A stretch of 64,000 nucleotides of DNA, taken from positions 58,282 through 122,281 of IMG/VR virus record IMGVR_UViG_3300012942_000032, one strand, 5' to 3'. This document shows, one piece after another, positions 1,522-32,515 of the stretch; the first letter of the stretch is position 1, and every line of letters begins with the position of its first letter. The stretch is from a virus (taxonomy: Duplodnaviria > Heunggongvirae > Uroviricota > Caudoviricetes). Under the pieces are notes generated by a model, which was given only the letters and a program-made list of their open reading frames with translations, was not told the DNA's origin and searched no databases. Made by a program: the position numbers and the translations under genes.

Positions 1522-1559
1522 TAATGTCTAAACATTGTAACATGAAGTCTGCTAATTGC

Positions 1560-1784: not shown

Positions 1785-1818
1785 ATAGGTGCTCGAAGCT
1801 AATTCCGAGCAGCTTGAA

Positions 1819-10380: not shown

Positions 10381-10773
10381 CTACTCCTGCACCTTCCAGC
10401 CCCAGGCGATGCAGCCGAAACGAACATCGAGATCTATATCGTCTTTGCCCTTGATGCCCGATTCATCCGTAATGGAAATGAGTTCTTCACCGTCTTGGAT
10501 GTAGTTGAAAACCCAGAGAGGAACCAGCCACTGATTCTCGTCCCAGCGACCAAAGCCCAGCCGCGTCAAAGCCACCGGATCGGCTGCGCGGAGTTCTTCG
10601 ATCGTGATGCGCCTGGACAGTGTTCCGGTTTCCTTGCCCTTCCAGACATCACGAATCTGTTTCCTGGCAAAAGCGTCCGTCCAGGACTCGTAGGCGGCAC
10701 CTTCTGCGGCTTCCGCCAACAAGCAAAGCTGGATGTGTGCCAGGTAGTTCTCGAGAGTGACCTTGTTATCCAT
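10381..10773 (-). CDS. hypothetical protein (about 130 aa; internal start MDNKVTLENYL... preferred)
   Basis: ORF track 10381..10953. The upstream 60 codons are Arg-rich and low-complexity and overlap the next ORF. Confidence 0.45.
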   Translation of the reverse strand: MDNKVTLENYLAHIQLCLLAEAAEGAAYESWTDAFARKQIRDVWKGKETGTLSRRITIEELRAADPVALTRLGFGRWDENQWLVPLWVFNYIQDGEELISITDESGIKGKDDIDLDVRFGCIAWGWKVQE

Positions 10774-10787
10774 TTTCTTTCCTCTGT

Positions 10788-10985
10788 TTATGAAAGATGA
10801 TTCACTCGACGATCTGTCGATTCTTTCCAGTGATAAGCCCGTTCGTTCCTGCCTTGATTGGGCCGCCAAATGTTTTCTGCTTCGTCGAGCTTGGGCTCGT
10901 TTTCGAACCAAAACCACTCGCCATTGCGATCCATTGCCATGTAGTTTGCCCAACTAGGGGCATGTCGCCATTCAGGCTTCATCAT
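10788..10985 (-). CDS. hypothetical protein (65 aa)
   Basis: ORF track. Confidence 0.35.
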   Translation of the reverse strand: MMKPEWRHAPSWANYMAMDRNGEWFWFENEPKLDEAENIWRPNQGRNERAYHWKESTDRRVNHLS

Positions 10986-11130
10986 GATCTTTTACTCCAT
11001 GAAGTTGTCCACCAATGTTGTTTGCAGGAAGCCAGCAGTATCGAGCAAGATCTTTGTTCTTGCTATCATCAACCCAAATACCATCTTCCAGCTTGATTGC
11101 TCTTTTACAGTGCTCACAGATCGTTTTCAT
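10972..11130 (-). CDS. hypothetical zinc-finger-like small protein (MKTICEHCK...)
   Basis: CxxC at the N-terminus; internal ATG of track ORF 10972..11175. Confidence 0.4.
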   Translation of the reverse strand: MKTICEHCKRAIKLEDGIWVDDSKNKDLARYCWLPANNIGGQLHGVKDHDEA

Positions 11131-11140
11131 GATTGTCCCT

Positions 11141-12232
11141 TTAAGCGTACAGCCGAACCATACGCTTCCAATCACCGTTCGGATTGCTTGCGCGCAGGTT
11201 CAACCCTCGAACCAGCTTGCGCAAATTGATGCTGATACTGTTCCTGCTTTCCCTGAGAGCATCGACGACTTCCAACCTTTCCTGCTTCGAGAGATACAAT
11301 CCATCTTCCAGATCCACATTCATGCAGATCTTTTCCATCATTTCCAGTACTTCATCATCCGTGGGATCGATATTGATCATCAGTGCGCGTGTTCGCAGCG
11401 CGCCATCGGGATCGAGCCTGTTGATAGACAGATTGCTAATGAAGATCACTTTACCAGTGAACTCGAAGTGAGATGGCATGAATCCTGCTTCGATATCTTC
11501 TTCTGTGATGGTCTCGGGATCCATCAGATTCTTCGAAGACTTTGTCCATACCAGCTTCCGTACTTTCTTGGTATCGGTTGCTGCTTTGAACAAGTTTCGG
11601 GAATCGAGATCTGCCAGACTGCCATCACTGTCGTCAAACACCAGAATGTCATCTTTGTGCTTGAACATCAGTTTGTAGAGTCCGCTGGGGCTTGAAGTGC
11701 CCGTATTCTTGAAGTAACCCTCACCATCAGACATTCCGAGTTGGGCAAGAGTTTCTTCCACGACATGCGATTTACCAACGCCACCACGACCTGCAACAAA
11801 GCAAGCGTTAGACGCTCCGCACACGGTGAGATTAACCAGAGTCCTGAGATCTTCCAGTTGCTCATCGTAGGGCATTTTGCTTGCGTTGGGATTGATTCGC
11901 TCGACGCCCTCTTCTTGATTGCTTTGCGCAAAATGGGGCGGAGCTTGTGTAGAAGAGCTTTGGCGGGATGCTTGTGCAGGTCTGCTACCTGCAATACCCA
12001 TGTCGAAAAGAATTTGTTGCTTGTTATGGAGCAATTCATTGATATCAGTAACACTACCAATGAAAACAACATCTCGACCCTGTTTACCGAACAAGTGCGA
12101 GAAGTTTCTGCGCAGATGATTCATTACTCTACTTCTGCGCCCTGTGCTCCATTCCGAAACATTCAGCCTTTGTCCTGGTTCCAGTGCTGCTAGTGCATCG
12201 TTGAAAATCTGATCGAAGACATCATTTAACAT
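11141..12232 (-). CDS. P-loop NTPase (Walker A GRGGVGKSH, Walker B ILVFDDSDG)
   Basis: AAGGAG RBS 7 nt upstream of the ATG of MLNDVFDQ. Walker A and B motifs present. Sits in an island of about 50% GC. Confidence 0.65.
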   Translation of the reverse strand: MLNDVFDQIFNDALAALEPGQRLNVSEWSTGRRSRVMNHLRRNFSHLFGKQGRDVVFIGSVTDINELLHNKQQILFDMGIAGSRPAQASRQSSSTQAPPHFAQSNQEEGVERINPNASKMPYDEQLEDLRTLVNLTVCGASNACFVAGRGGVGKSHVVEETLAQLGMSDGEGYFKNTGTSSPSGLYKLMFKHKDDILVFDDSDGSLADLDSRNLFKAATDTKKVRKLVWTKSSKNLMDPETITEEDIEAGFMPSHFEFTGKVIFISNLSINRLDPDGALRTRALMINIDPTDDEVLEMMEKICMNVDLEDGLYLSKQERLEVVDALRESRNSISINLRKLVRGLNLRASNPNGDWKRMVRLYA

Positions 12233-12381
12233 CAACGGCTCCTTATTATGGATTGCGTGCTGGGTCCTGTGTCCCTGCTTGTGCATATATTATTGCATTA
12301 TCAAGTGATGCTGTCAATCAACCTTTCATGGTTTTACCACAGAAATTTCAGTGAACTTGTGATAGTAAATCTGATCTATGA

Positions 12382-16982: not shown

Positions 16983-17003
16983 TAGATGATTATTCAGTCA
17001 AAA

Positions 17004-17035
17004 GAATAGGGGCGATCAAGCCCCTATTCTTTTCA
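17004..17035. terminator. bidirectional rho-independent terminator between convergent genes
   Basis: AGAATAGGGGC-gatcaa-GCCCCTATTCT, an 11-bp perfect stem flanked by AAAAG on one side and TTTTC on the other. Confidence 0.75.
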
Positions 17036-17257
17036 GACAGCAGTCAATCCGTAACGATTGCTCTTCACGAACCTTCCATTATCCTTCATCGCTTTGAGCA
17101 GTTCTGCCAAAGCTCCTTCATAGCGATGACGCACTTCAGGATAATCATCGTCGATGACTGCGACCTGATTGTGATTCTTCAGAGCCTTCGAGAATTCGTT
17201 AGCAGCAGCGAATTCCTTACTCTGAAGTTCCATTCGTTTCAGGATATCATCGCTCAT
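17033..17257 (-). CDS. hypothetical protein (74 aa)
   Basis: ORF track. Confidence 0.5.
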   Translation of the reverse strand: MSDDILKRMELQSKEFAAANEFSKALKNHNQVAVIDDDYPEVRHRYEGALAELLKAMKDNGRFVKSNRYGLTAV

Positions 17258-17259
17258 GA

Positions 17260-17544
17260 TCAGTCCTGGTGCCGATGAACGATTTGTTCGATGATGTCAC
17301 CGTACTTGGCATCCTTGGTAATCGGCATCGTGTAACTGCGAGGCACACCATTCGCTTTGGTGCCGCTCTTGATGATGCGACCTTCGACGATCTGCCGACC
17401 GCGTGCCTTGTTGAAGCGATCGCGTTCGTTGCAGACTGCGATGGCATAGGTCACCGTGTCGTCGTTCCAGTTCCGACGATAGCCGATTGTGGCACGTCGA
17501 CCGAAATCCTGACCCAGGTGGGCATACTTGATCTTGTCTTCCAT
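17260..17544 (-). CDS. hypothetical protein (94 aa)
   Basis: ORF track. Confidence 0.5.
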   Translation of the reverse strand: MEDKIKYAHLGQDFGRRATIGYRRNWNDDTVTYAIAVCNERDRFNKARGRQIVEGRIIKSGTKANGVPRSYTMPITKDAKYGDIIEQIVHRHQD

Positions 17545-17545
17545 C

Positions 17546-17710
17546 TCTACTCCTTTGTGGCGGTAACGCCGTTAAGTTGCGCCTTCACCCTTTCGATCAG
17601 CTCAGTTGTGATCTGAACTCCCACAGGGTCTTTGTTAGCCTTCTCCAACAGGCGTTTGTTGGCCAAGGCGTCTACTACATCTTCCAAAAGCTCTTTCAGA
17701 TCTTCGTTCA
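17546..17710 (-). CDS. hypothetical small protein (54 aa, MNEDLKELLEDVVDALANKRLLEK...)
   Basis: Below the ORF-track threshold but exactly fills the gap between flanking minus-strand genes. Confidence 0.4.
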
Positions 17711-17944
17711 TAGCTCATTCGACATATAGTCGCCTTTGTGAACATAGACCTTGATAAGATCATTGCCATAGGCACAGAATTGATCGAATACGAAGCAATT
17801 CTTTTTGGTTCCGTTAGTGAATTTCTTCTCCTGCCAGTAGCCTGGAATTTCTTCCATCATCTTTCCAGCAAGCGAATTACTCACTTCTGCAACCAAAGCA
17901 CCTCCTTCATGACTCCTGATGTACATCATCAATATCCTTCCCAC
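17708..17944 (-). CDS. hypothetical protein (78 aa)
   Basis: ORF track. Confidence 0.45.
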   Translation of the reverse strand: MGRILMMYIRSHEGGALVAEVSNSLAGKMMEEIPGYWQEKKFTNGTKKNCFVFDQFCAYGNDLIKVYVHKGDYMSNEL

Positions 17945-18132
17945 TGTTCATTGCAGTCTTCGCAGTCATAAGCTGCATTCAGATGAATGCCATCAGGAAC
18001 ACATCCTACGCATTTGATGTTGGTACCAGAACATCGGGGACACATCTTGCCCTTACAGACGGTATCCCTTTGGTCTTCTGTGAATGTCCACTCGCTAGGT
18101 CTACTTGGCATTTTCTCTGCACCAGGATTCAA
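17929..18132 (-). CDS. hypothetical zinc-ribbon protein (67 aa)
   Basis: CKGKMCPRC...CVGC...CEDC cysteine pairs. Confidence 0.5.
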   Translation of the reverse strand: MNPGAEKMPSRPSEWTFTEDQRDTVCKGKMCPRCSGTNIKCVGCVPDGIHLNAAYDCEDCNEQWEGY

Positions 18133-18349
18133 ATTCTTCTTGTTGACGATCGTAAATCTCTTTGATCTTGTCGTCGGATGCTTCTAGCCTATATTCAGCG
18201 AGCTTCTGACGACAATCAGAAATTGGGAGGTCGCATGCCCAACAGTGTTCTATCAATTTTTCCGCATCAGAAAGTTTCATGATGGTATCAATCGTTGGCT
18301 GTATTGCGTGCAAGTGTAGCACAACAGCGCAGGGAGTGCAAAACCGCAC
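18101..18349 (-). CDS. hypothetical protein (82 aa)
   Basis: ORF track. Confidence 0.45.
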   Translation of the reverse strand: MRFCTPCAVVLHLHAIQPTIDTIMKLSDAEKLIEHCWACDLPISDCRQKLAEYRLEASDDKIKEIYDRQQEEFESWCRENAK

Positions 18350-18370
18350 GTAGCTGGGAAAATAGTGATC
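18311..18370 (+). repeat. GC-rich intergenic repeat family member (AGCACAACAGCGCAGGGAGTGCAAAACCGCACGTAGCTGGG...GTGATC)
   Basis: Shares the AACCGCACGTAGC core with 22321-22370. Confidence 0.6.
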
Positions 18371-18378
18371 TTTTCACA

Positions 18379-18460
18379 GAAAGCGCGCTGCAAAATCAAT
18401 GACTTACACGGTGGTCAAATCAGCGATTTTTGCAGCGCGCTAACATGCGCTTTCAGTTTT
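18379..18460 (+). terminator. long GC-rich hairpin (AGCGCGCTGCAAAA...TTTTGCAGCGCGCT) with trailing T-run
   Basis: A 14-bp stem nested in an outer GAAAGCGC/GCGCTTTC stem, followed by AGTTTT. Confidence 0.45.
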
Positions 18461-18584
18461 ACCAGAACTTTCCTATGAAATGGATCACCACGCAAATCAG
18501 GCCTACGAACAGGGCGATGCACACCACAGCCCAGATCGCAGTGATCAGTTCAACCAACGTGAAACCCTTCTGGAACTTCTTCAT
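18459..18584 (-). CDS. prepilin-like (type IV pilin N-terminal motif) mini-protein, 41 aa
   Basis: MKKFQKGFTLVELITAIWAVVCIALFVGLICVVIHF carries a canonical G|FTLVEL prepilin cleavage/methylation motif plus a hydrophobic helix. It is the internal start of track ORF 18459..18680. Confidence 0.45.
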   Translation of the reverse strand: MKKFQKGFTLVELITAIWAVVCIALFVGLICVVIHFIGKFW

Positions 18585-18597
18585 TACCTGCTCCTGA

Positions 18598-18810
18598 TTA
18601 CGAAAAACGCCCTTTCGGACGGTTGTCAAGGGAAACCTGATGTTTCTTAGCCTTCCCAAAATTGAAGAATCGACGGCCATCTTCCGTGTAGTACCTGGTT
18701 CCAGTCTTGTCCTTCCTGAACATCATTCCATGGGGAAGACCTTTGTTGCCGAAGGTCACTTCCATCTTCACGTTCAGGATATTGAGGGTGGTACGGAACT
18801 GGCGCGTCAT
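18598..18810 (-). CDS. hypothetical basic protein (70 aa)
   Basis: ORF track; preferred over the overlapping 18647..18877 frame. Confidence 0.4.
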   Translation of the reverse strand: MTRQFRTTLNILNVKMEVTFGNKGLPHGMMFRKDKTGTRYYTEDGRRFFNFGKAKKHQVSLDNRPKGRFS

Positions 18811-19022
18811 GAGATAAAGCTCTCGATGCTGATTTCGACGCCGTCGCTGTTCTTGAACTTCTCACCACGATGAACAATGGTGTAGACTGCGCCCCTGATG
18901 TTCAGGTTCTTGAGAAACCCTTCCAACATCTCACCTGCCGCGTCCGCACCTTCCCTCATGTACTTGGCGACAAAGTTCTGCGAAGTCGCATTCTTGTCGG
19001 GAATCTCGATCGTTATTTTCAT
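18807..19022 (-). CDS. hypothetical protein (71 aa)
   Basis: ORF track. Confidence 0.45.
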   Translation of the reverse strand: MKITIEIPDKNATSQNFVAKYMREGADAAGEMLEGFLKNLNIRGAVYTIVHRGEKFKNSDGVEISIESFIS

Positions 19023-19053
19023 TTCTTGCCCCTGTTAAATCGGAAAGGCTATC

Positions 19054-19302
19054 TTATCGCTCTGGCATCAAATTGATTTGGAGCGATTTCTGTACGAAAC
19101 TCTGATCATCGATCATTTCAACCATTTTCTTAGGATCGCAGTGATCAAGATAATCGTCGAAAGGATCAAGAACACTTCCTGCACATCCATCCCACACGAT
19201 GTTAGGATTGTGTGCAGCAACCCAACCTAAGGCACCTACTATCACCCTCAGTTGGTTCTCGGTCATCCTGACCTCTACGATTTCGTTTCTGATATCACTC
19301 AT
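19054..19302 (-). CDS. hypothetical protein (82 aa; internal start MSDIRNEIVEV...)
   Basis: Track ORF 19054..19542. The N-terminal extension overlaps the neighbouring gene in another frame. Confidence 0.45.
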   Translation of the reverse strand: MSDIRNEIVEVRMTENQLRVIVGALGWVAAHNPNIVWDGCAGSVLDPFDDYLDHCDPKKMVEMIDDQSFVQKSLQINLMPER

Positions 19303-19735
19303 CTTCTTCGGTCTCTTCGCTCGCAGTCCACACGAAGGAAGGCCAGTAGACGATGTAGTCTCGGCCCAGGTTGTCGTAACGTGCCCCTGTGATTCCGAAT
19401 TGAGCAGCCCGCTCGATGATCTTGATGGGATCTTCCCCAGAGATGCCGTAGCAGCGTTCACCGTACATGCACCTGCCGGAATAACCCTCATAGATCGAAA
19501 CATCTTCCGCGTCTCCTTGAAGCGACTCCACCACCTCATCAAAAAGGTTCTTGATGAAATCCTTGTTTTCCTTTTCGTCGCTCCTGGAAATCCGCCTCAG
19601 ACCATGAGTAAGATGGTCGATGCTGTTCTGTATCTCGTCTTTCGACTCTTCCAGCTCTTCAAGAAACTCCACGGCTTGCACCTCGCGTTGTTTTGCCCAT
19701 GCGTTTATAATAACGCAATGCAAGCGTGGAGTCAA
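19295..19735 (-). CDS. hypothetical acidic protein (146 aa)
   Basis: ORF track. Confidence 0.5.
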   Translation of the reverse strand: MTPRLHCVIINAWAKQREVQAVEFLEELEESKDEIQNSIDHLTHGLRRISRSDEKENKDFIKNLFDEVVESLQGDAEDVSIYEGYSGRCMYGERCYGISGEDPIKIIERAAQFGITGARYDNLGRDYIVYWPSFVWTASEETEEDE

Positions 19736-19764
19736 GTGAAGAAGTTAATTATCAGTGATATACG

Positions 19765-19986
19765 TCACTGATTCTTCTGATCGTATTCTTCCACGATTTT
19801 CTTGATCGTTTGCAGGTGCTGACCTTGGGAATAATATAGGTCGCCAGAAGTCTTGAAGACTAGATCACGAGTCTCCAAAGAACGCATCGTTGCGGGAAGA
19901 ACATCAAGTTCAGAGATCGACCTGGGGGTATTGTCGATCTTGCGGAGGGCTTCGATTTGAAGCTCGGTGAGGGGTTTAGCAGCCAT
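19765..19986 (-). CDS. hypothetical protein (73 aa)
   Basis: ORF track. Confidence 0.45.
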   Translation of the reverse strand: MAAKPLTELQIEALRKIDNTPRSISELDVLPATMRSLETRDLVFKTSGDLYYSQGQHLQTIKKIVEEYDQKNQ

Positions 19987-20161
19987 GACACATCTCCAGT
20001 GATAAGATACCCTTCCAAGGAGGGTACGTCCTTCCCCTGTTTTGAGATGTTATTGGTATCGGGGAAACTGGATGCGCTTCTTGATAACGAAGAAGAGGCC
20101 AACCAGGTCAAGAACCAAGACAGCATAAATCGCAATCAGAAGCGCATCCATTGACTTTCTC

Positions 20162-20485
20162 CTACTTGACAGCCTCGAGCAAGGAAGGAGCAACCTTCCA
20201 ATTCATGCCATTCTCTGCCTTGACCTGCACCGTCTTAGCATTGATCTTCTGAACGGTGCCACGAACATGCATCTGCTTCTTGGCAGAATAGAACATGACA
20301 CGATCATTGACCTTGAAGAGCTTGGCGGTCTGGTACTGCAAAGAGTTCCAGCGCTCCTTGATGGCGGCATTGATCTGAGTAAGATCGTCCGTCGTCATAC
20401 TATTGGTGCGATCGAGGATGGTGTTGACAATCTGAGAAGTATTCATGAAACACCTTTGGTTTGGATGAAGGTTGTTGGGCTCCAC
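20162..20485 (-). CDS. hypothetical protein (107 aa)
   Basis: ORF track. Confidence 0.45.
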   Translation of the reverse strand: MEPNNLHPNQRCFMNTSQIVNTILDRTNSMTTDDLTQINAAIKERWNSLQYQTAKLFKVNDRVMFYSAKKQMHVRGTVQKINAKTVQVKAENGMNWKVAPSLLEAVK

Positions 20486-20530
20486 CTATAAGCAAGTGTA
20501 ACGCAAACAAGCGAAGATAAAAAGAAATTT

Positions 20531-20779
20531 CTAAGAGTTATGATCAATCCTTGAGGCGACCATAGCCCTTGCTGTCGCCTCGTCTGCATTGTAAAGCTTG
20601 TCGCAGAAGAAACGATCTTGTCGGCACTTCTCCAGCTTCATGTATGAATAGAAGGCCTGACCCCAACGCAGAGCTGTATTCCTGTGCCTGAACGCATCCA
20701 CGCGACTCTTAGGGAACATGAGCATGATCTGCTCCTTTGATTTCTTCCGTGACACGAACCAGATCTTCCAGAGTGACAT
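20531..20779 (-). CDS. hypothetical protein (82 aa)
   Basis: ORF track. Confidence 0.4.
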   Translation of the reverse strand: MSLWKIWFVSRKKSKEQIMLMFPKSRVDAFRHRNTALRWGQAFYSYMKLEKCRQDRFFCDKLYNADEATARAMVASRIDHNS

Positions 20780-21038
20780 CCAAGAAGAAGACGATACCTC
20801 GATTCCATGTTCTGGTGTACTTGCCCATGAAGTTTTCCAGGGTCAGAGGATCAACCTTCTTCAGATCTTCTGGTGTGATTGCAAACGAATGGACAGTCTT
20901 GCTTTTGAGGATGCTTCCCACCAGATGAACGATATCAGGAAGAGCAATGTCATAGGTGTCAGACACAGGGTAGTGAGCAGCCTTGAAAGAGACGCACATA
21001 TCCTTCAGTTTGGCAACGATGTCATCTTGCAGACTCAT
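20709..21038 (-). CDS. hypothetical protein (about 109 aa, start MSLQDD...)
   Basis: Track ORF 20709..21065, with the internal start preferred. Confidence 0.45.
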   Translation of the reverse strand: MSLQDDIVAKLKDMCVSFKAAHYPVSDTYDIALPDIVHLVGSILKSKTVHSFAITPEDLKKVDPLTLENFMGKYTRTWNRGIVFFLDVTLEDLVRVTEEIKGADHAHVP

Positions 21039-21241
21039 GATCTTCTCCTTACTGTTCCGTACCATTGATTGTCATGAAAACTGATCGAACCTATTAGAGG
21101 ATGACCTTCAGAGTCCTTTCCTTCCCAGTGTGCCTTGACGGGTTCCAGACCTTGATCCCGTAAGAACAGACGAACGTACTGAAGATTATCATCCTTGTAT
21201 TCTATGATTCCATTCTTTTTGACTACACCTAAGAAAGGCAC
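21035..21241 (-). CDS. hypothetical protein (68 aa)
   Basis: ORF track. Confidence 0.45.
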   Translation of the reverse strand: MPFLGVVKKNGIIEYKDDNLQYVRLFLRDQGLEPVKAHWEGKDSEGHPLIGSISFHDNQWYGTVRRRS

Positions 21242-21492
21242 TCGACTCTCCCCAACCTATTCATCAGCCGCGCAGACTTCGGTTCGTGCTTCGCGGTATT
21301 GATGGAACAGATTGTGAAGTCATTCCTGTGGAGCAACCTTCCAAGACGGTTCTCAATGCAATGCACGCAGAGCATTCCAATCTTGGTCGTGACAACAGAT
21401 AACCAAACCTCATCCTTAAGGTAATAGTGTTCGTAGATCTTTCCTGTATCAACTTTGCAATCCAGACACAGGAACTTAGACCTAGATTTCAT
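21229..21492 (-). CDS. hypothetical zinc-finger protein (87 aa)
   Basis: CLDC...CVHC cysteine pairs. Confidence 0.45.
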   Translation of the reverse strand: MKSRSKFLCLDCKVDTGKIYEHYYLKDEVWLSVVTTKIGMLCVHCIENRLGRLLHRNDFTICSINTAKHEPKSARLMNRLGRVECLS

Positions 21493-21625
21493 TTCTTGTC
21501 TTCCTTGCCAGGACAGGGAGCATTCATTGCCTTAGACGTGGCAGAGTTCTTCAGATTGATCAGACCACAGCGTCCACAGAACATGAAAGACATCTTGTGA
21601 GTGATCTTGAACCAGATATGACTTT

Positions 21626-21892
21626 TCATTTGACAATCCTGCTGTTCATGGCAACCATTTCTTGCACCAGAAGAAGATCAAAGTCGTCTGTCGTAGGGGC
21701 AGCCGCAATGACATTGAAACCGTGTTTCGTGAGGTAGTTGGCAGCAGTGACCACCATATCACGTGCCTCATAGTCGAAGGGGATTGTGATGCGATCACCA
21801 GGATGTCTGCATGAATACATCCTGATCCGCGCTCCTCGTTTGGAAGTAGGACCAATCTTCTTTACTTTGATCGCATGAAGATTAGGAAACAT
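21626..21892 (-). CDS. hypothetical protein (88 aa)
   Basis: ORF track. Confidence 0.45.
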   Translation of the reverse strand: MFPNLHAIKVKKIGPTSKRGARIRMYSCRHPGDRITIPFDYEARDMVVTAANYLTKHGFNVIAAAPTTDDFDLLLVQEMVAMNSRIVK

Positions 21893-21903
21893 TCTTTCTC
21901 CCC

Positions 21904-22212
21904 TTATTCTGGAATTTTGATCTTCACAGAATGATCATTGAAGTCGACAGTCATCAGGATGTCCCACTCATCCTCAAACGGAATGATGTAAGGATCTTCA
22001 TCCATCATGACCAACTCAATCACTTTGCAACCAGGTTCCCACTTCCAATTCGGCGCCCAGTGAGCCCAATCAAATTTGATAGCATCCAGGATGCAGCTTC
22101 CAAGACATCTTTCTTCCTTCAGCACCCAGGTATTCTTCTCGGGATAGGATTCTTTGATACAATCCTTGCCGAAAATCCTTTCTATCAGATCTCTACCGTA
22201 CATGGCGTGCAC
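21904..22212 (-). CDS. hypothetical Trp-rich protein (102 aa)
   Basis: ORF track. Confidence 0.45.
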   Translation of the reverse strand: MHAMYGRDLIERIFGKDCIKESYPEKNTWVLKEERCLGSCILDAIKFDWAHWAPNWKWEPGCKVIELVMMDEDPYIIPFEDEWDILMTVDFNDHSVKIKIPE

Positions 22213-22320
22213 CTGCTTGCCTGTTATCCATGCTTTATACTAACATGATCCATTATGGAATAGCAACTGAAGATTTAGACTATCTGTGATATAGATCTTC
22301 TGTTAGAATCTTCAATACTT

Positions 22321-22370
22321 TGCACACTAGCAGCACACAATCCCTGCAGAACCGCACGTAGCAGGATGAT
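22321..22370 (+). repeat. GC-rich intergenic repeat family member (TAGCAGCACACAATCCCTGCAGAACCGCACGTAGCAGGATGATC)
   Basis: See the repeat-family finding. Confidence 0.6.
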
Positions 22371-22465
22371 CGTCTCCAAATGTTTACAAAAGCGCATTAC
22401 AAAACAACGACTTGCGCTGACAATAGTCATGAAAATGCGCGCACAAAATGCACGCGCAGTTCCTG

Positions 22466-22696
22466 TTAATTCGTTTTCAGATCAGCAAGCTTGGCGAGGA
22501 ACTCGATCTCTTGCCTTCCTTGTTTCTTCAACCAGTCCAGAGTGCGACGATGATTGGACGGAATAGCTCTGGCGGCAGGACGACCACGATAGGTATATTT
22601 GTACTCCGCATCTTTCAGAGTACCATCCGCATGATACCATGCCCTGCATTTCTCCCAGGCAAGCATGAAGCTTCCGTCTTGGAAGTTAACCTTCAT
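22466..22696 (-). CDS. hypothetical protein (76 aa)
   Basis: ORF track. Confidence 0.45.
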   Translation of the reverse strand: MKVNFQDGSFMLAWEKCRAWYHADGTLKDAEYKYTYRGRPAARAIPSNHRRTLDWLKKQGRQEIEFLAKLADLKTN

Positions 22697-23010
22697 TAGT
22701 TCCTTCCTCGAGGAGCATTGATCAGGTTGCGCACCTCCTGGATGGCAAGGATATCGACGAGGTAATCCAGATCAATGCTGACGTGCGTCATTTCTACAAC
22801 GTCAACCAAGATCAGAACAGACTTCTCTTCCAGATGAAGCTCTGTGGCGCGCATATCATCCAGAAAGATTTCCAGACGAGCAGCAACCATAGCGGTCAAC
22901 ATCTGTTCAGACGACACGTTTTCCATTATTATTTGCTCCTTGAGGGCAACAAAGACCTCAGGTGAATGATTGCTTCTTCCCTGATAACGAATTCCCTTAC
23001 GGTGAACCAC
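22696..23010 (-). CDS. hypothetical protein (104 aa)
   Basis: ORF track. Confidence 0.4.
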   Translation of the reverse strand: MVHRKGIRYQGRSNHSPEVFVALKEQIIMENVSSEQMLTAMVAARLEIFLDDMRATELHLEEKSVLILVDVVEMTHVSIDLDYLVDILAIQEVRNLINAPRGRN

Positions 23011-23144
23011 TTCTTCGAAAGGAGTCGATCCAGAGAGGAATGAGTGATCAGACCATCCGTCTCCTCCTTGATCTGTTCGATGTCATCCTCGACTTCATCT
23101 TCCGTTACCCTGAAGTGGAGACCCTGAGGAGTGATATTGATCAT
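22929..23144 (-). CDS. hypothetical acidic protein (71 aa)
   Basis: ORF track. Confidence 0.4.
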   Translation of the reverse strand: MINITPQGLHFRVTEDEVEDDIEQIKEETDGLITHSSLDRLLSKKWFTVREFVIREEAIIHLRSLLPSRSK

Positions 23145-23488
23145 TTCAGATCCTCCTCAAGAAGGTTGATGGCCAGGAGTTCCAGAGAACGTTCTTCTTC
23201 AGACCAGAGGTGTGGGAAGCTCGTCACATGGTTGCGAAGTGCCTGGAGATCCTCCTTCTGATAGTCGGTGCCCAGAACATCAATGGCGATCTCCTGAGCC
23301 CTTTCCAGAACCTCGATCTGTGAGTTCACAAGCATCTGGTCGAGGAGTTCCCTGGCAGCATCCATATGAACACTCACTGAATGACTCCGGAAACACGGAA
23401 CCAGAAGATGCAGCTTACCACTGCCCACATGAAAGCAATGAAGCCCCAGCGGTTGAGGAGTCGACGACAGTCCCGATTGAACCGCCAT
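23141..23488 (-). CDS. hypothetical protein (115 aa)
   Basis: ORF track. Confidence 0.45.
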   Translation of the reverse strand: MAVQSGLSSTPQPLGLHCFHVGSGKLHLLVPCFRSHSVSVHMDAARELLDQMLVNSQIEVLERAQEIAIDVLGTDYQKEDLQALRNHVTSFPHLWSEEERSLELLAINLLEEDLK

Positions 23489-23521
23489 TGGAAACGAACA
23501 AAACCAGTGCGACGAATCATG

Positions 23522-23728
23522 TCAGCTGATCCTCTTGATGTAGATGTCCTGATCGTGCCCCACAAGCATCTCCTGCCCTGCTTGCAGATCAGCGATCAGA
23601 TCGACTTCTGATTCCGAGTAGTCAGTCATCTCGAACACCTGCTGGAGCGAGAGACCACAGTCTCGGCGATTGACTGTACCACCAGACCGATCTTCCATCG
23701 TGTAGCGTTTCATAAACAGATACCTCAC
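23522..23728 (-). CDS. hypothetical protein (68 aa)
   Basis: ORF track. Confidence 0.4.
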   Translation of the reverse strand: MRYLFMKRYTMEDRSGGTVNRRDCGLSLQQVFEMTDYSESEVDLIADLQAGQEMLVGHDQDIYIKRIS

Positions 23729-23997
23729 TCGCTGATATCAATCATCAGAGGAACATCTTCTTCCTCAAAGTAATCAGAGACATCGCCCCAGGTAACCTGA
23801 ACAGCAATGTTCTCCACCAGTTCCTGCTTGATCGCTGTCCGATCGTCAACCCTGACACACATCGTCTCCGGCAGTCCATCAACCTTCAGTTCCGCCTGCA
23901 AGAGATCGTAGATGACAGCCAGTTGGGCTTCCGTCAGACGCAGATCATATACCTTGTTCATGTTCGTGCCCCTACTTGTAACGCATCCTGAAGCCAA
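23725..23997 (-). CDS. hypothetical protein (90 aa)
   Basis: ORF track. Confidence 0.45.
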   Translation of the reverse strand: MASGCVTSRGTNMNKVYDLRLTEAQLAVIYDLLQAELKVDGLPETMCVRVDDRTAIKQELVENIAVQVTWGDVSDYFEEEDVPLMIDISE

Positions 23998-24235
23998 GTG
24001 CTTCTACACACTCGGACATAGAAATCGAATCACAAAAGCCCTGGAACCGACCCTCCGCCCTGCTCGCATACCACTTGAACACAACATCGGAAATGTATCC
24101 CTGAGAAACAGCAGCCTGTGTTACCAGCGCCACCTGAATCCCATCCTCGAGCAAGTACGCCTTACCCTTCCCTACATTTTCGATCGTATAGTTCATGTCT
24201 ACCTCAAGAAGCGGATTGCCTACAACGTATCCCAT
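23972..24235 (-). CDS. hypothetical protein (87 aa)
   Basis: ORF track. Confidence 0.45.
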   Translation of the reverse strand: MGYVVGNPLLEVDMNYTIENVGKGKAYLLEDGIQVALVTQAAVSQGYISDVVFKWYASRAEGRFQGFCDSISMSECVEALGFRMRYK

Positions 24236-24835
24236 GCGCTTATACTAGCACACAAGCAAAAGAAAGCAAGTGAAGATTTGAACTATCGTAGAACTCTGTC
24301 TAACTTACTTCGTCTAACTTACTTCTTAGGTACCTTACTCAGTTCAGATCTCCGAACACGAAGAGCTTTCCCATCACAAAAGATCGCCGCCCAACCCGGC
24401 TCCTTAAACTTCATACCCTGAATGACCTCGACCTTCCGCCCCTGATACATCTTCATCACCAACCGTGCCATACCCCATCACCTCCTGTAGTCCTGTGTCA
24501 ACATATGATGCAGTTCCTCCGCAATAGATAACAGAGCAAGCGCATTAGCATCTAACTTTTTCTCAAATGCCTTCTCTTTCATCTTAAACAACTTCTTCCG
24601 CAACACATGAAGCTGACGAACTTTCCGTTCCTGTAAGTCCATAACCACTCCCTCGCCCTAAAAGGTAAAGACATACTAAAAGAACATTCAGAAGAAAGCA
24701 AATAGAATCTAAGAAGTATCGTAGACACAATACTACACAAGCCCAGCACCAATATAGAACCTACGATGTAACGCGCTATAACAGCGCACAAGCAACGCGC
24801 ATCCCAACAGCAATACAGCAGCACACCCTTATACC

Positions 24836-24864
24836 TCCCTGCGCTTGTAGCGCGTTATAAAAGC
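24836..24864 (+). repeat. 29-bp direct repeat copy 1 (TCCCTGCGCTTGTAGCGCGTTATAAAAGC)
   Basis: Repeated at 26256-26284 with one mismatch; contains a GCGC-ttgta-GCGC mini-hairpin. Confidence 0.7.
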
Positions 24865-25229
24865 TCTCCAGTTTCGTCTGCAACTCACTCCGTCTTCACT
24901 ACGCTCGATTCTGCTTCGTCTACAACAATAGAATACGATCATTTATATTGCATTCATTGATAACGATCAAAAGGTCAGAAAGTGATGAAGATGGTCAAAA
25001 TTATATGATCTGTTCTCCTGACGTGCCACTCAAAAGAAAAGGAGCACAAAGGCCCCTAAGGAGTAGGTGTGGTGTGATACTACAAGGAGAGGAGTGAGAA
25101 GCAACAGGACTTAGATCATACACTAAGAGTGGTGTTGTGATCAGACCAAAGGTGCTATGGGTTCAGAAGTGGAACCAATCAGGCGACGATCACCAAGCTC
25201 ACCAAAGCTATCCTTTCTAAGAACCCAGT

Positions 25230-25595
25230 CTAGCCTTCCTCTCCAAACATCAGATCATAGAAGCGTTGCCAGTCACACTCCGCGAAGGTGGTGAGCTTAC
25301 ATTGTTTCATGCAACCAACAGGAGTGAGTACAACGTAGGAGATCAGGTCTGCCATACGTGCGAGCATTTCGTCCTTGTTGTGTACTATCTGATCAGGAGC
25401 ATGCTCGTAGGTAAAGGTGAGGAATCGATCTTGTTCTTCAGGAGAGGTGAAGGTGATAAAGGTCATAGCACCTCTGCCATCGTTGTGTATCTCTGCGACC
25501 TTTTTGTTGTTGCGGGTGAGGTGGTAGCGATAGGCGATCCCATTCCGAGTTTCCATATCGGAGTAGGAGGCGATTGAGTAGCCGTTAGTGATCAT
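25230..25595 (-). CDS. hypothetical protein (121 aa), elevated GC
   Basis: ORF track; translationally coupled (ATGA) to the upstream gene. Confidence 0.5.
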   Translation of the reverse strand: MITNGYSIASYSDMETRNGIAYRYHLTRNNKKVAEIHNDGRGAMTFITFTSPEEQDRFLTFTYEHAPDQIVHNKDEMLARMADLISYVVLTPVGCMKQCKLTTFAECDWQRFYDLMFGEEG

Positions 25596-25789
25596 AGGAC
25601 GAAGGAGAAGATGTGGTTGTCGGAGTTGGTGGGAGTCTGGAGAACATCCCCGAACATTTTGATCAGTAGATCGTTGGAGCAGGAATCGGGATCAGCTTCT
25701 GTTTCGGGAATAGGAGCCTGAGAGGAATTGGAGAGCGCGTGCATGAGGACAGCGATCTGATTGGAGGACAGGCGGATGTTGTAGTTCAT
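25592..25789 (-). CDS. hypothetical small protein (65 aa, start MNYNIRL...)
   Basis: Track ORF 25592..25825; AAGAGG lies upstream of the internal ATG. Confidence 0.4.
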   Translation of the reverse strand: MNYNIRLSSNQIAVLMHALSNSSQAPIPETEADPDSCSNDLLIKMFGDVLQTPTNSDNHIFSFVL

Positions 25790-25803
25790 GTGACCATTAC
25801 CTC

Positions 25804-26023
25804 TTAGGAGTGGAAGGCGTGCCAAGCGCCAGTGATGTAGGAGATGGTACCGACGATCTCCACACCTTCATAAAGATCGTCCTCTGAGAAGGAGCGCATA
25901 GCTCCTGTTTGGATAGCTTTCAAATCTTCAGGAGTGAGGTCTTTGATAGAGGTGACATTGAAACGCTCCAGATACCACTTCACACCGTCTTCGATGTTTT
26001 TGCGTACATCATGCAGGAAAGTC
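25804..26023 (-). CDS. hypothetical small protein (73 aa, start MTFLHDV...)
   Basis: Track ORF 25804..26106; AAGAGG RBS 7 nt upstream of the internal ATG. Confidence 0.45.
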
Positions 26024-26255
26024 ATTCTATTGCCTCTTAGGTGTGCATTGGGAGCATTGCGTCCCTGTATGCACATACTAGCACGCTGCGCACACAGGGC
26101 AAGCATTACATGCGATCTGCATCTATGAAAGTTTAGGAGTAGGTGGTGTGCTGCTATGCGCGGGAGCGTGCTAGTGTACGTGGTGCCTTAGACGCACGCT
26201 GCGCCCGTATAAGCGCGTCCCTGCCGTCCCGTGTGCTAGTGTAGTCCCGTACAGT

Positions 26256-26284
26256 TCCCTGCGCTTGTAGCGCGTTACAAAAGC
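26256..26284 (+). repeat. 29-bp direct repeat copy 2 (TCCCTGCGCTTGTAGCGCGTTACAAAAGC)
   Basis: See copy 1. Confidence 0.7.
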
Positions 26285-26409
26285 CCTTCAGTTCCACTTC
26301 CAAAGAGGAGTAGGAGCACATACGAGGAGGGCAAGGTGGTGCTGAAATAGAGGTGGCAAGAAAGGGAGCATCTCTGCTCCCGATCCTGCTTGCTTGTTGT
26401 GCTGCCGTA

Positions 26410-26913
26410 TTACGCTTCGGCGGACTCGGTCTTCGGAAGCGAACGTGCCGTCTTCAGACCCAGGTTGGCCAGCACCTCGTTCTTGTCGATCTTGCTCACG
26501 TCCCCGATGAAGCGCACGTTGCGGCCGCTCTTCTCGAAGTCTTTCGCGTACAGCTTCCGGATGGTCTGCATCATGCGCACCTTGCGCCCCGCCTTCCACT
26601 CGGTGAGCGTGTCGCCGGCCTGCAGCGCCTGGATGGCCATGTCGAAGACCACGTCGTACTCGGGGTTCTTCGTGCGCTCGGTCTGCTCCGCCGCTTCCTG
26701 CTTGGGAGCTTCCGCTTCCGGCTTGCTGAACGTGACCGTCAAGCTGTTCTCGCCGGCTTCGAACGAGGCACCTTCGAGCTGCTCCAGCGCCTTCTGCGCT
26801 TCGGCGGGATCGACCTTGCTGATCTTGTAGCCGTCGTCGCCGTGCTTGCGCACGCGGTCGAAGGACACGTTGCTGGACTTGAGGTTGGTGCTGATGTCGG
26901 TGGTGGTGTACAT
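26410..26913 (-). CDS. hypothetical protein (167 aa) encoded in a DNA segment of about 62% GC
   Basis: AAGGAG RBS 7 nt upstream. Third-position GC is strongly elevated and unlike the rest of the phage. The overlapping plus-strand ORFs are antisense artefacts. Confidence 0.65.
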   Translation of the reverse strand: MYTTTDISTNLKSSNVSFDRVRKHGDDGYKISKVDPAEAQKALEQLEGASFEAGENSLTVTFSKPEAEAPKQEAAEQTERTKNPEYDVVFDMAIQALQAGDTLTEWKAGRKVRMMQTIRKLYAKDFEKSGRNVRFIGDVSKIDKNEVLANLGLKTARSLPKTESAEA

Positions 26914-26998
26914 GGTGTTATCTCCTTTGCGTGCTAGGGCGGAATTGCCCTTGCTTAGTTGGGGGAAGTTAGCGCGTTGCTCCCTGTCCCTTATGCTT

Positions 26999-27026
26999 AG
27001 TATACGTCTGCGCTTTTGCAGGGCAA
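26999..27026 (-). promoter_or_regulatory. candidate sigma70 promoter (TTGCCC-16-TATACT) for the GC-rich gene
   Basis: Seen on the reverse complement about 80 nt upstream of the ATG at 26913. Confidence 0.4.
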
Positions 27027-27168
27027 GCGTTTTTTTGAACTTTTATAGGCGCGTTCAGCTTGCGTTTAGGAAAGCTTTTGCGTGCGCAGTTTGTAACGAA
27101 CGCGCACGCGCATAACACAAACGCGCTAGGGCTGTCAACGGTTCTCCAAAAAATAATTTTTGCAAGAC

Positions 27169-27197
27169 TTGACACGCCGTTTGCTTTATGCTATGCG
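27169..27197 (+). promoter_or_regulatory. candidate promoter TTGACA-17-TATGCG, preceded by GCAAGACTTGAC
   Basis: Exact -35; weak -10. Confidence 0.35.
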
Positions 27198-27246
27198 CTA
27201 GAAGCCGGGGCAAGGCACTAACACAAAACAGAGGGCAACGCAAGAC

Positions 27247-27275
27247 TTGACGGGAGGGATGCGGCATGCTATACT
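27247..27275 (+). promoter_or_regulatory. strong candidate promoter TTGACG-17-TATACT, preceded by GCAAGACTTGAC
   Basis: Near-consensus -35/-10 with a 17-nt spacer; second copy of the GCAAGACTTGAC box. Confidence 0.55.
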
Positions 27276-27344
27276 AGGCGACCCCCCTGATGGATGTAGA
27301 TCTTGGTCTGAAGCTACAATACCGCCTTAAGGGCCAAGCCATCT

Positions 27345-27530
27345 TTGACTCGCTTCCAATATCACTATGTTCATTCCCAGTATCACTTCTAGAAATATTG
27401 ACTCGCTCCCAATTTACTAGAAAACAGTTACCCGGATCAATACTGGTTTTGACTCGCTCCCAATTTCACTATGTTCATTCCCAATTTACTAGAAGGGGCT
27501 TCGCCTACTCGCAAACAGTTACCCGAGGCT
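27345..27530 (+). repeat. array of three about 50-bp direct repeats, each starting TTGACTCGCTYCC and containing 11-bp CCCAATTTCAC-type sub-repeats (iteron-like)
   Basis: TTGACTCGCT at 27345, 27398 and 27449. Five CCCA(A/G)T(A/T)T(C)AC boxes, some about 20 bp apart. AAACAGTTACCCG(G/A)(A/G) occurs twice. Confidence 0.6.
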
Positions 27531-27565
27531 TTTACAAAATCTGGTATAAAATTTCCAGAATGTAG

Positions 27566-27784
27566 CTACTCCCCAGCTAACCTGATATCAGTTCCCAGCG
27601 GTCCGTATCTACGATTGAGATAAATTTTCAGCTCTACTTTCTTCTCGTCCAAAATCTTAATCGCAGCTACAATATCCTCTGTAGACTTTCCCTTAGTAAA
27701 CTGATGCACACAATCATTAAGCAGATGTCTGAACTTTGATAGTTTCATAACATAATCGTTAGTGATAAGCAAATACAATAACAC
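27566..27784 (-). CDS. hypothetical protein (72 aa)
   Basis: ORF track. Confidence 0.45.
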   Translation of the reverse strand: MLLYLLITNDYVMKLSKFRHLLNDCVHQFTKGKSTEDIVAAIKILDEKKVELKIYLNRRYGPLGTDIRLAGE

Positions 27785-27816
27785 ATATATTATTCAGAGA
27801 TTTAAAATATCTTCTG

Positions 27817-28083
27817 TCATACTATTGTTATTCTCTTTTGAGCATTCTTGGGAAACAGGGCCGCGGACTCAAGTTCATCCATATCAATAAAGGTATCTGC
27901 CTGGACAGGTTTTCCATTGATATGAAGTGCCTGGTTCTTTATCCAACGAGCAAGCTCAGAGTTGGAGGCAACCTGCTTGGGATTTTCTTTTGACCAGAAT
28001 CCAGGGGATCGGAAATTATGAACAGTTCGGAGCCATTGAAGAGCTTTCATCTTGGGTGCCTCCCTGAGGAATAAACAGACCAT
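27817..28083 (-). CDS. hypothetical protein, possible S4-like RNA-binding fold (about 88 aa)
   Basis: ELARWIKNQALHINGKPVQ is a weak S4-domain resemblance. Confidence 0.35.
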   Translation of the reverse strand: MVCLFLREAPKMKALQWLRTVHNFRSPGFWSKENPKQVASNSELARWIKNQALHINGKPVQADTFIDMDELESAALFPKNAQKRITIV

Positions 28084-31460: not shown

Positions 31461-32318
31461 TTACTTCTGTTCAGGAATCTGGTACATCATGTTCGTACCA
31501 CTGCCCAGTTGGGTCTGCGGCAGATGACCATCCCACTTCTCGATCCAGTTCAGCTCAACGACGCCCGGATTGTCGTGCATCGCCTTACCACGCATCGCAA
31601 TAGCCTGAGCTTCGGCGGTTGCGAGCTTGAGCTTCGCCTGGGCCTGACCATCTGCCACTGCAACTTCCTTCTGGGCTTCGGCTTGTGCCTGGGCGACTTC
31701 GTTCTCACGCTGCTGAGCCATCTGGGTGGCCTGGATCTTCGCATTGATCGAGTTCACGACGTTCTGCGGCAGTCGCAGATCTCCGATCCAGTAGACCTTC
31801 TCGATCACGATACCCTTCGAACCCATTTCGTGCTGGACTTCACCTTGTACCTTGGAGATCAGATCTGCCTTACCCTTACCGTAGACAGATTCGATGCCCA
31901 TCGTACTCGCTTCGGTTACCAGAGCATCACGAACCATGTTGCGTAGATAGACATGGGTGATCTCGTCGATGCCCTTCCGATAGGTCTGGAACAGCTTCGT
32001 GACTTTCGTCGGATCGATATGGTAAGTGATGCCCACGTCAGCGTTGACACTCAGACCCTCGACGGTCTGGAATGAAAGCGATTCGTCACCATCGTCACCC
32101 TTCTGCTGCCACGTGTAGGTCTGGGTGAAGGTCGGAAAAGTGTAGAGTTCCTGATTCCACGTCAACCAGTAACGTCCCGGAGGAAGTTCTTGTGTCTGTA
32201 CGCCTTTGTCGCCGCCATACAGATTGAACTTGACACCGACATTACCTGCAGGTACCTTGGAGCAGGCAGCCAGCATCATGATGCAAAGCAGACCTACTAC
32301 CTTCAGTAGATTCTTCAT
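31461..32318 (-). CDS. SPFH/Band-7 (prohibitin/HflKC-like) domain lipoprotein
   Basis: Lipoprotein signal MKNLLKVVGLLCIMMLAAC followed by an SPFH core and a C-terminal coiled coil (AQAQAEAQKEVAVADGQAQAKLKLATAEAQA). The start is taken at the internal ATG of track ORF 31461..32489. Confidence 0.65.
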   Translation of the reverse strand: MKNLLKVVGLLCIMMLAACSKVPAGNVGVKFNLYGGDKGVQTQELPPGRYWLTWNQELYTFPTFTQTYTWQQKGDDGDESLSFQTVEGLSVNADVGITYHIDPTKVTKLFQTYRKGIDEITHVYLRNMVRDALVTEASTMGIESVYGKGKADLISKVQGEVQHEMGSKGIVIEKVYWIGDLRLPQNVVNSINAKIQATQMAQQRENEVAQAQAEAQKEVAVADGQAQAKLKLATAEAQAIAMRGKAMHDNPGVVELNWIEKWDGHLPQTQLGSGTNMMYQIPEQK

Positions 32319-32515
32319 GGATTTTCCTTTTTGGTTGTGTGAAAACGGATGATTTTGTAGAACCAGTAGAACAACATCACGAACGACAATACACCAATTC
32401 CGAACGCAATCCAAGATGTCGTCGAAATCAGAGTAGGTGAAACGCTCATTACCAGGAGTGCATAGAGCACGATCCACAGAAAATTGCAATATGCTTGACG
32501 CTTGAAGAAGTTCAT
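32315..32515 (-). CDS. small two-TM membrane protein (66 aa) upstream of the SPFH gene
   Basis: Hydrophobic segments LWIVLYALLVMSV and IAFGIGVLSFVMLFYWF; overlaps the SPFH start. Confidence 0.5.
   Translation of the reverse strand: MNFFKRQAYCNFLWIVLYALLVMSVSPTLISTTSWIAFGIGVLSFVMLFYWFYKIIRFHTTKKENP

Follow-up and report, generated by a model that had tools for sequence, protein, structure and literature searches.

We analyzed a 64,000-nt stretch of viral DNA, hereafter the window (positions 58,282 to 122,281 of IMG/VR record IMGVR_UViG_3300012942_000032), and within it a locus at 24836-27285 where a small gene of extreme base composition lies beside two near-identical copies of a 29-bp direct repeat. 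The window belongs to a T4-like myovirus, as a first-pass annotation of the locus had also implied: its large plus-strand genes have matches to PHROGs of the baseplate wedge and other virion parts, and a 612-aa structural protein shares 43% identity with its counterparts in distantly related T4-like phages of Stenotrophomonas, Xanthomonas, Acidovorax and Variovorax (Mendera, IME-SM1, BUDD). Counts of repeats, motifs and tRNAs given here hold within these 64 kb. The same annotation had read the locus as a high-GC gene island, bounded by the repeats and recently captured from a high-GC donor. The features on which our own account depends are the following, in descending coordinates:

26999-27036, minus strand: promoter, with an A-tract (27036-27030), -35 TTGCCC (27026-27021), a 16-nt spacer and -10 TATACT (27004-26999)
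26922-26950, minus strand: end of the 5' untranslated region (5'UTR), with a hairpin GGGC-AATTCC-GCCC (26950-26937) and Shine-Dalgarno sequence AAGGAG (26927-26922)
26410-26913, minus strand: protein-coding gene for a 167-aa protein, GC content 62.5%, GC content at third codon positions (GC3) 0.905
26364-26381, minus strand: intrinsic-terminator-like hairpin GGGAGCAGAGATGCTCCC with a T-run, about 30 nt past the stop codon of the 167-aa gene
26205-26293, minus strand: intergenic element that contains repeat copy 2
25804-26025, minus strand: orphan gene for a 73-aa protein, between the repeats
25592-25789, minus strand: orphan gene for a 65-aa protein, between the repeats
25230-25595, minus strand: orphan gene for a 121-aa protein, between the repeats
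25000-25057, minus strand: hairpin (25057-25040) and sigma-70-like GTGGCA-18-TATAAT (25029-25000), consensus matches only, downstream of the 121-aa gene
24769-24873, minus strand: element that contains repeat copy 1, the extended repeat lying at 24826-24873

Base composition sets the 167-aa gene apart from the gene classes of the window, for which the labels early and late rest on gene organization only. Within a window of 41.4% GC, the late genes (38-39% GC) have a GC3 of 0.288±0.039 (n=21), small-gene block A upstream of the 167-aa gene (27.5-33 kb) one of 0.390±0.086 (n=15), and small-gene block B (17-26.1 kb, including the three bracketed genes) one of 0.573±0.076 (n=29). With a GC3 of 0.905 over values of 0.57 and 0.40 at first and second codon positions (GC1 and GC2), the 167-aa gene is the sole true outlier (z=4.4 vs. 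its own block, z=15.9 vs. the late genes), and the figure of about 62% GC with very high GC3 previously given for it is borne out (0.625 and 0.905). A composition far above background had been claimed for four genes together, which holds for this one; the three genes bracketed by the repeats (GC 0.48-0.51, GC3 0.57-0.68) fall within block B. The phage, described as AT-rich, is so moderately rather than strongly. Nor do the repeats bound an island, since GC content is 0.488 between them and 0.477 both in the 2.8 kb that follow copy 1 and over 17000-26409 as a whole; the 167-aa gene lies outside the repeat-bounded interval, and the compositional step sits at the 650-nt intergenic region 26914-27565. 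Downstream of the gene lies one larger feature:

17000-26409, minus strand: array of about 30 small genes, a single compositional domain (GC 0.477), presumed early and hyperplastic

The gene is conserved in position as well as in sequence. Orthologs with 52-72% amino acid identity occur in L003, L006, L008, L009 and L001/L002, and at the six orthologous loci sampled the gene keeps its position: a long non-coding region precedes it, an array of small co-oriented genes begins with it, and virion genes flank the locus on both sides where the contig reaches far enough. L004 and L005 represent the same phage as the window (99.99%), and the longest contig with an identical 167-aa protein measures 156,730 bp. 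The family numbers nine members among 5.8 billion proteins, all metagenome-sourced, and every long contig that carries one is phage-like. We found no cellular homolog among the cellular entries of the protein databases or in 185,579 prokaryotic species genomes (GTDB), no relative of the protein in a scan of IMG/VR, and none in isolated phages (tblastn against 50,697 phage records, among which megablast detected no DNA-level relative of positions 24000-28000); a profile search of 1.84 billion representatives added only a phage ATPase and one weak multi-repeat match. An antisense open reading frame (ORF) of 194 aa (26353-26937, plus strand) was considered and rejected as a shadow ORF, as third-position turnover shows that the minus strand codes.

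The skewed composition is a property of the family as a whole. GC3 ranges from 0.72 to 0.905 in six orthologs, each of which is the GC-richest gene of its locus, the rest of these loci having 44-51% GC. Between orthologs, codons for the same amino acid differ at 22-39%, and at 38 invariant four-fold degenerate sites C and G swap freely, yet 85% stay G or C; since G/C endings are kept through this synonymous turnover, the bias has been maintained. It is also codon-specific: the orthologs use GAA in 44 of 85 cases (52%), compared with 7 of 97 (7%) for AAA and 1 of 33 (3%) for CAA (Fisher p=2e-14), and the family encodes arginine almost only by CGC or CGT, glycine by GGC or GGT and leucine by CTG or CTC. 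The effective number of codons (Nc) of the window gene is 31.9, compared with 37.6 expected from GC3 alone. The codons of the family appear to resemble the sets of optimal codons known from highly expressed genes of GC-rich Proteobacteria.

The protein, too, has a link to the phage in which it is found. An AlphaFold2 model (predicted local distance difference test score, pLDDT, 72) gives it two domains, the N-terminal one ferredoxin-like (residues 1-63, alpha-beta-beta-alpha-beta-beta) and the C-terminal one made up of helices and a beta-hairpin (83-157), with a disordered linker (64-82) between them. The C-terminal domain has a paralog encoded elsewhere in the window:

11141-12286, minus strand: gene for a 381-aa P-loop ATPase (AAA_16), similar to T4 NrdC.10

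Residues 21-102 of this ATPase are the paralogous part (35% identity over 82 aa, E=8e-15); more than 1,100 T4-like phages match the ATPase over residues ~120-380 only, and its first ~100-105 residues are lineage-specific. A single 162-kb phage encodes both an ortholog (P0008) and a 360-aa protein (P0010) that is 66% identical to the 381-aa protein of the window and whose N-terminus matches residues 85-159 of the 167-aa protein in a profile search (E=6e-11). This sharing of a domain with the phage's own ATPase argues for an origin inside the phage lineage. Ten ORFs of the locus compared with Pfam and PHROG gave sub-threshold noise only.

Synteny in six diverged lineages, all with high GC3, the lack of a detected cellular homolog, a domain common to another gene of the same phage and the codon-specific pattern speak against the recent high-GC capture that had been proposed; judged by this comparative evidence, the gene is old and indigenous to the phage lineage and not a recent import. 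A more ancient capture is a separate matter: the whole gene or just its N-terminal half would have reached a common ancestor from a high-GC bacterium or phage, and the composition of the gene would not yet have drifted to that of its surroundings. The lower GC3 of the other orthologs (0.72-0.89, compared with 0.905) is readable as such partial drift, but in L001, where GC3 is lowest, the decrease is due to GGT, CGT, GAA and GAT rather than to random gain of A or T, and G/C endings have been kept through synonymous turnover across 30-48% amino acid divergence. While a GC3 far above that of every other window gene, the sharp borders at the ends of the coding sequence (0.905 vs. flanks of 0.51-0.55) and the tiny size of the family (9 proteins) would all fit an ancient import, the cellular genomes and isolated phages searched hold no homolog, the C-terminal domain is paralogous to part of the phage's own ATPase, and the regulatory signals around the gene are conserved. 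We consider an ancient capture improbable.

A cause that acts on the region rather than on translation would have to explain the same composition differently, with GC-biased repair or conversion, protein-binding motifs or an origin-like region lifting GC at 26.0-27.3 kb. The GC3 of the gene far exceeds its GC1, its GC2 and its flanks, and the excess therefore lies at the synonymous sites of one reading frame, although the adjacent non-coding DNA is itself raised: the flanks have a GC content of 0.51-0.55 (0.549 in the intergenic region IG2 and 0.512 in the promoter and UTR), compared with 0.32-0.47 in other intergenic regions. The GC-rich motifs AACGCGCTA and AAGCGCAG recur in three neighboring intergenic regions only, and a repeat-rich non-coding region in which relatives' contigs break lies next door, both of which would suit a regional cause; the asymmetry between GAA and AAA/CAA, however, is not expected from composition bias. 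We regard a regional origin of the GC3 as quite unlikely.

The expression signals of the 167-aa gene are conserved along with it. A promoter of its own, of the form TTGCCC-16-TATACT, had been proposed, and we find a promoter-like site of this form at 27026-26999 (minus strand); the A-tract and the GTATACT that contains its -10 element are unchanged across six lineages, while the -35 element varies (TTGACA, TTGCAA or TTGCCC). In the 5'UTR, GCAATTCCGC is invariant in six sequences and one pair of the hairpin stem covaries (GC/CG/UA), which is weak evidence for a putative hairpin of 4 pairs. A strong ribosome-binding site, AGGAG, is likewise shared by the aligned upstream regions. The hairpin and T-run past the stop codon also follow the ortholog in L003, L006, L009 and L001, which are all the lineages compared downstream. 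With its own promoter, UTR and terminator, the 167-aa gene would thus be monocistronic and autonomously controlled.

Other signals lie further upstream. The top sigma-70-like site of the region (27247-27275, plus strand; TTGACG-17-TATACT with an upstream TG, 10/12 matches) faces the repeat region rather than the 167-aa gene and runs antisense to the small genes upstream, and relatives have TTGAC(A/G)-N15-19-TGTACT at this position on the same strand. The repeat-rich non-coding region upstream of the gene, 27276-27565, contains dispersed modules on the minus strand (GGGTAACTGTTT, CTAGTAAATTGGGA and ATGAACATAGTGAAATTGGGAGCGAGTCAA) that are present in L008 too and a 60-nt element (27278-27338) that is 84% conserved in L003; the contigs of L002, L003 and L006 end inside the equivalent region. 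Over 27276-27570 neither strand folds significantly as RNA and Rfam gives no match; the region may be an array of iteron-like or protein-binding sites. At its contig start (positions 1-50), immediately ahead of the conserved 60-nt element, L003 has about five tandem 10-mers, GCAGAGAGAT, which are either variable tandem repeats or an artifact of the assembly end.

Codon usage separates the gene classes further. Late genes use CTA, TTA, GTA and AGA at fractions of 0.22, 0.17, 0.33 and 0.55, whereas the fractions in block B and the 167-aa gene, respectively, are 0.04 and 0 for TTA, 0.03 and 0 for CTA, and 0.14 and 0 for GTA; synonymous codon usage is thus distinct between the classes. The phage tRNAs decode the codons favored by late genes, in a comparison that covers the three tRNAs inside the window:

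401-485, minus strand: tRNA-Leu(UAA), beside the transfer-messenger RNA (tmRNA)
926-1000, minus strand: tRNA-Val(UAC), beside the tmRNA
1437-1521, minus strand: tRNA-Leu(UAG), beside the tmRNA

The tmRNA (1557-1914, minus strand) is of the permuted two-piece type (Rfam RF04321, 63.7 bits), with the tag AKTKNVAANDDVYAVALAA. In the 162-kb relative, late genes have a GC3 of 0.34-0.43 and small genes one of 0.38-0.72, the same direction of early above late, and in Stenotrophomonas phage Mendera the early and late values are 0.72 and 0.62. Early and late codon differences are documented in phages (PMC5683454).

From this anatomy, conservation, composition, codon pattern and paralogy we arrive at a reading to which we assign a probability of roughly 0.6: the 167-aa gene is a conserved, codon-optimized, autonomous and probably immediate-early gene, accompanied by a duplicated, non-canonical element that flanks three orphan genes. 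The region would be the promoter-proximal part of a long, presumed-early array of small genes, and the GC3 of the 167-aa gene would form the top of a genome-wide gradient (0.29 in late genes, 0.39 in upstream small genes, 0.57 in downstream small genes, 0.905 in the gene itself). Selection among synonymous codons for efficient translation with the host tRNA pool may hold this GC3, late genes instead using A-ending codons that phage tRNAs would serve, and if codons are indeed selected for host tRNAs, the product is most likely a very highly expressed immediate-early protein. Our best guess at its role is a nucleic-acid- or protein-binding regulator that would share a targeting domain with the NrdC.10-like ATPase.

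Several observations weigh against this reading. The GC enrichment of the flanks over other intergenic regions is not explained by codon selection alone, and a very GC-rich host would not normally be expected for a phage of 41% GC; a host could not be assigned from the acceptor and T-arm of the tmRNA either, a candidate indicator that we rejected as uninformative because the 26-mer is present across many phyla. The 167-aa protein has no significant match in Pfam, PHROG or the PDB, and fold searches give no specific function. Sigma-70-like sites in the array show no enrichment over shuffles, and the T4 late-promoter motif TATAAATA occurs once in the 64 kb, where 2.8 occurrences are expected by chance, a scarcity from which we infer that the late transcription signals of this lineage must differ from those of T4. 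No shared promoter word dominates across the intergenic regions of the array.

A bolder version of the regulatory proposal would make the 167-aa protein an immediate-early DNA-binding switch, made in bulk from host-optimized codons, that binds the GC-rich boxes AACGCGCTA and TAYAAGCGCAGGGA, with the 29-bp repeat as an operator for the downstream units and the C-terminal domain as a DNA- or partner-recognition module shared with the ATPase. The two boxes form inverted pairs 44-53 nt apart and are found only in the promoter/UTR of the 167-aa gene and the next two intergenic regions; we regard this version as a long shot.

The repeat itself was correctly described. The 29-mer TCCCTGCGCTTGTAGCGCGTTAYAAAAGC occurs in exactly two copies, at 24836-24864 and 26256-26284, which are identical at 28 of 29 positions (with one Y difference) and bracket the three minus-strand orphan genes; a search of the window that allowed 3 mismatches found no other copy, and none is expected by chance (100 shuffles). 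Similarity stretches to 48 nt at 85% (24826-24873 vs. 26246-26293), and an 11-nt core with 1 mismatch has four sites (0.57 expected), only the two repeats among them being intergenic. Copy 2 lies in IG2 (26026-26409, 384 nt) and copy 1 in IG1 (24643-25229, 587 nt), each downstream of a terminator-like hairpin (26381-26364, 70 nt away, and 25057-25040, 167 nt away).

The two copies differ in what surrounds them and in their conservation. On the minus strand, the copy 2 element consists of a box TACAAGCGC (26269-26261), a 17-nt spacer, a -10-like TACACT (26243-26238) and, at a distance of 44 nt from the first box, an inverted box GCGCTTATA (26216-26208). L003 has an orthologous element past its copy of the 167-aa gene (75% over 77 nt), and L006 and L001 have looser counterparts: all three have a core TAYAAGCGC on the minus strand past the ortholog's terminator, TACACT or TACTAT follows 16-17 nt past the box in the window, L003 and L001, and an inverted GCGCTTRTA lies 44 nt past the first box in the window and L003. 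The copy 1 element is without the conserved TACACT and has an inverted partner of its own (arms 24841-24857 and 24769-24787, 53 nt apart), and we found no counterpart in relatives, which makes it specific to the window phage. It is nearer to copy 2 (28/29) than the orthologous elements of other phages are, so a recent duplication or conversion seems probable. An RNA-structure reading of the elements was rejected (z-scores -1.7 to +1.7); Rfam at E ≤ 1 returned nothing over 24600-27700, and a search for the exact repeat pattern elsewhere gave 1 match in IMG/VR and 11 in JGI metagenomes, all unrelated chance matches. We propose that a conserved intergenic control element, which comes after the terminator of the 167-aa gene in relatives too, has the 29-bp repeat as its upstream half, and that a second, partial copy arose in the window phage 1,420 bp downstream, with the three orphan genes between. 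Segmental duplication was considered for the 1,420-bp spacing and rejected, as the genes after copy 2 and after copy 1 show no protein paralogy. A duplicated intergenic control element that flanks orphan genes would be fairly ordinary for such phages.

The enclosed genes, called from the identical contig L004, each have an AAGAGG-type ribosome-binding site. None has a Pfam or PHROG family or a homolog in the relatives' loci (L003, L006, L001, L009), and the 121-aa protein matches only itself among 5.8 billion proteins. Homology to L003 breaks off roughly 50 nt beyond copy 2 and is not regained until near 23713; amino acid identity in the conserved gene is about 72% for the nearest distinct relative, and variability reaches past copy 1. 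Across the array (17000-26409), conservation with L003 and L006 is patchy only, and two adjacent small genes at 23374-23713 (minus strand), one beginning MKRYTMEDRSGG and the other containing RTGFVRFQWRFNRDC, are in reverse order in L003 (2470-3068), an example of gene-order shuffling inside the array.

This arrangement raises the question of whether homologous recombination between the copies moves the three orphan genes in and out as a unit of 1,420 bp, as in the mini-circle model for T4-type phages with their promoter-early stem-loop (PeSL) cassettes; only the repeats are at issue here, and a positive answer would not conflict with the reading of the 167-aa gene given above. The repeats (28/29, or 48 nt at 85%) are direct and intergenic, each past a terminator-like hairpin, the genes they enclose are orphans absent from relatives, and T4-type recombination uses patches of <50 bp, with PeSL mini-circles demonstrated (PMC2839356). 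That L003 homology ends just past copy 2 and does not return until near 23713 would suit exchange at the repeat, but beyond copy 1 come a 54-aa and a 50-aa gene that are lineage-specific too, so the variable segment runs past the repeat. Likewise, the copies are more alike than copy 2 and its orthologs, which implies recent duplication or conversion, yet only two copies exist in 64 kb, and it is copy 2 that carries the ancestral flanks on either side (the terminator side and the TACACT...GCGCTTATA side), whereas simple integration at the repeat would put the downstream ancestral flank after copy 1. The relatives compared show no clean presence or absence of the unit, L004 and L005 being the same phage, and canonical PeSL anatomy is not found. 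Repeat-mediated shuffling of the three genes is plausible from the sequence arrangement, although exchange as this exact unit seems to us a possibility rather than a probability. On our preferred reading, the pair of repeats is a duplicated control element, a non-canonical addition to the intergenic elements that may shuffle orphan genes.

Beyond the flagged region the genome is a compositional mosaic. A Band_7/SPFH gene (31461-32489, minus strand) has a GC3 of 0.60-0.65 and is GC3-rich in the 162-kb relative too, and the 190-aa and 381-aa genes within 10381-12286 (minus strand) have values of 0.52-0.59. An Rfam abiF RNA match (59673-59709, plus strand; 39.4 bits compared with a gathering score of 37) lies between two late plus-strand genes.

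Our findings caution against equating a compositional "island" in a phage genome with recent horizontal transfer, as a single gene with GC3 of ~0.9 in a genome of 41% GC is here old, syntenic and apparently held by codon selection. If the proposed expression holds, the 167-aa proteins would be an uncharacterized and probably very abundant early family, a candidate host-takeover or regulatory factor of uncultured T4-like phages. The gene resembles an acquired island or moron in its sharp local GC excess and its own promoter and terminator, and differs from one in its synteny across six lineages, in having no donor homolog found, in the paralogous domain within the phage and in a maintained codon pattern.

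PeSL and promoter-middle stem-loop (PmSL) cassettes of T4-type phages (PMC2839356; PMC4122927) offer the closest model for the repeats, and the first-pass annotation had invoked such cassettes. The comparison is reasonable insofar as a repeated intergenic sequence lies in a hyperplastic array of small orphan genes in a T4-like phage, downstream of terminator-like hairpins and flanking genes that vary between relatives, with a repeat length of 29-48 nt that is within the T4-type recombination range. The anatomy, however, is not that of PeSLs: the stem-loops are not adjacent to the repeats but 70 and 167 nt away; a promoter scan finds no sigma-70 -35/N17/-10 in either repeat, copy 2 having only the -10-like TACACT 17 nt after the box AAGCGC; and a start codon comes only 195-230 nt away (26025 and 24642, about 220 and 185 nt past the ends of the extended repeats) rather than abutting the element. 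Two copies are present instead of many dispersed through hyperplastic regions, each has an inverted box as its partner 44-53 nt further downstream, and no clean indel at the repeats is seen among the relatives compared.

Likeness to the T4 NrdC.10-like ATPase (PHROG 1250) extends over residues ~120-380 of the 381-aa protein of the window, and the 167-aa protein is without this ATPase part. T4 MotA is an early two-domain activator of middle promoters, and the 167-aa protein resembles it as a small two-domain protein with a flexible linker, encoded by a presumed early gene beside which a conserved box stands at a fixed distance upstream of a -10-like hexamer. It differs in having no sequence match to MotA; comparison of the MotA C-terminal domain with the predicted fold was not significant (E 0.5-0.95, probability <0.2, TM score ~0.2), and neither sequence nor fold places the protein in the MotA_activ or MotCF domains. 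The resemblance may serve as a lead only.

The codon pattern has its closest counterpart in T4 itself, for which Cowe and Sharp in 1991 reportedly linked a partition of early and late codon usage to phage tRNAs. Here, too, discrete usage classes track gene organization, the late-enriched CTA, TTA and GTA match phage tRNAs, and presumed early genes use host-type G/C endings. The two cases differ in amplitude, which is unusually large for a single gene (0.905 vs. 0.288), and in that the two presumed early blocks are unlike each other (0.39 vs. 0.57). Should the inferred expression prove true, the window phage would provide a sharp natural example of two phage codon dialects, with host-matched codons for the first protein made and phage-tRNA codons for the late genes.

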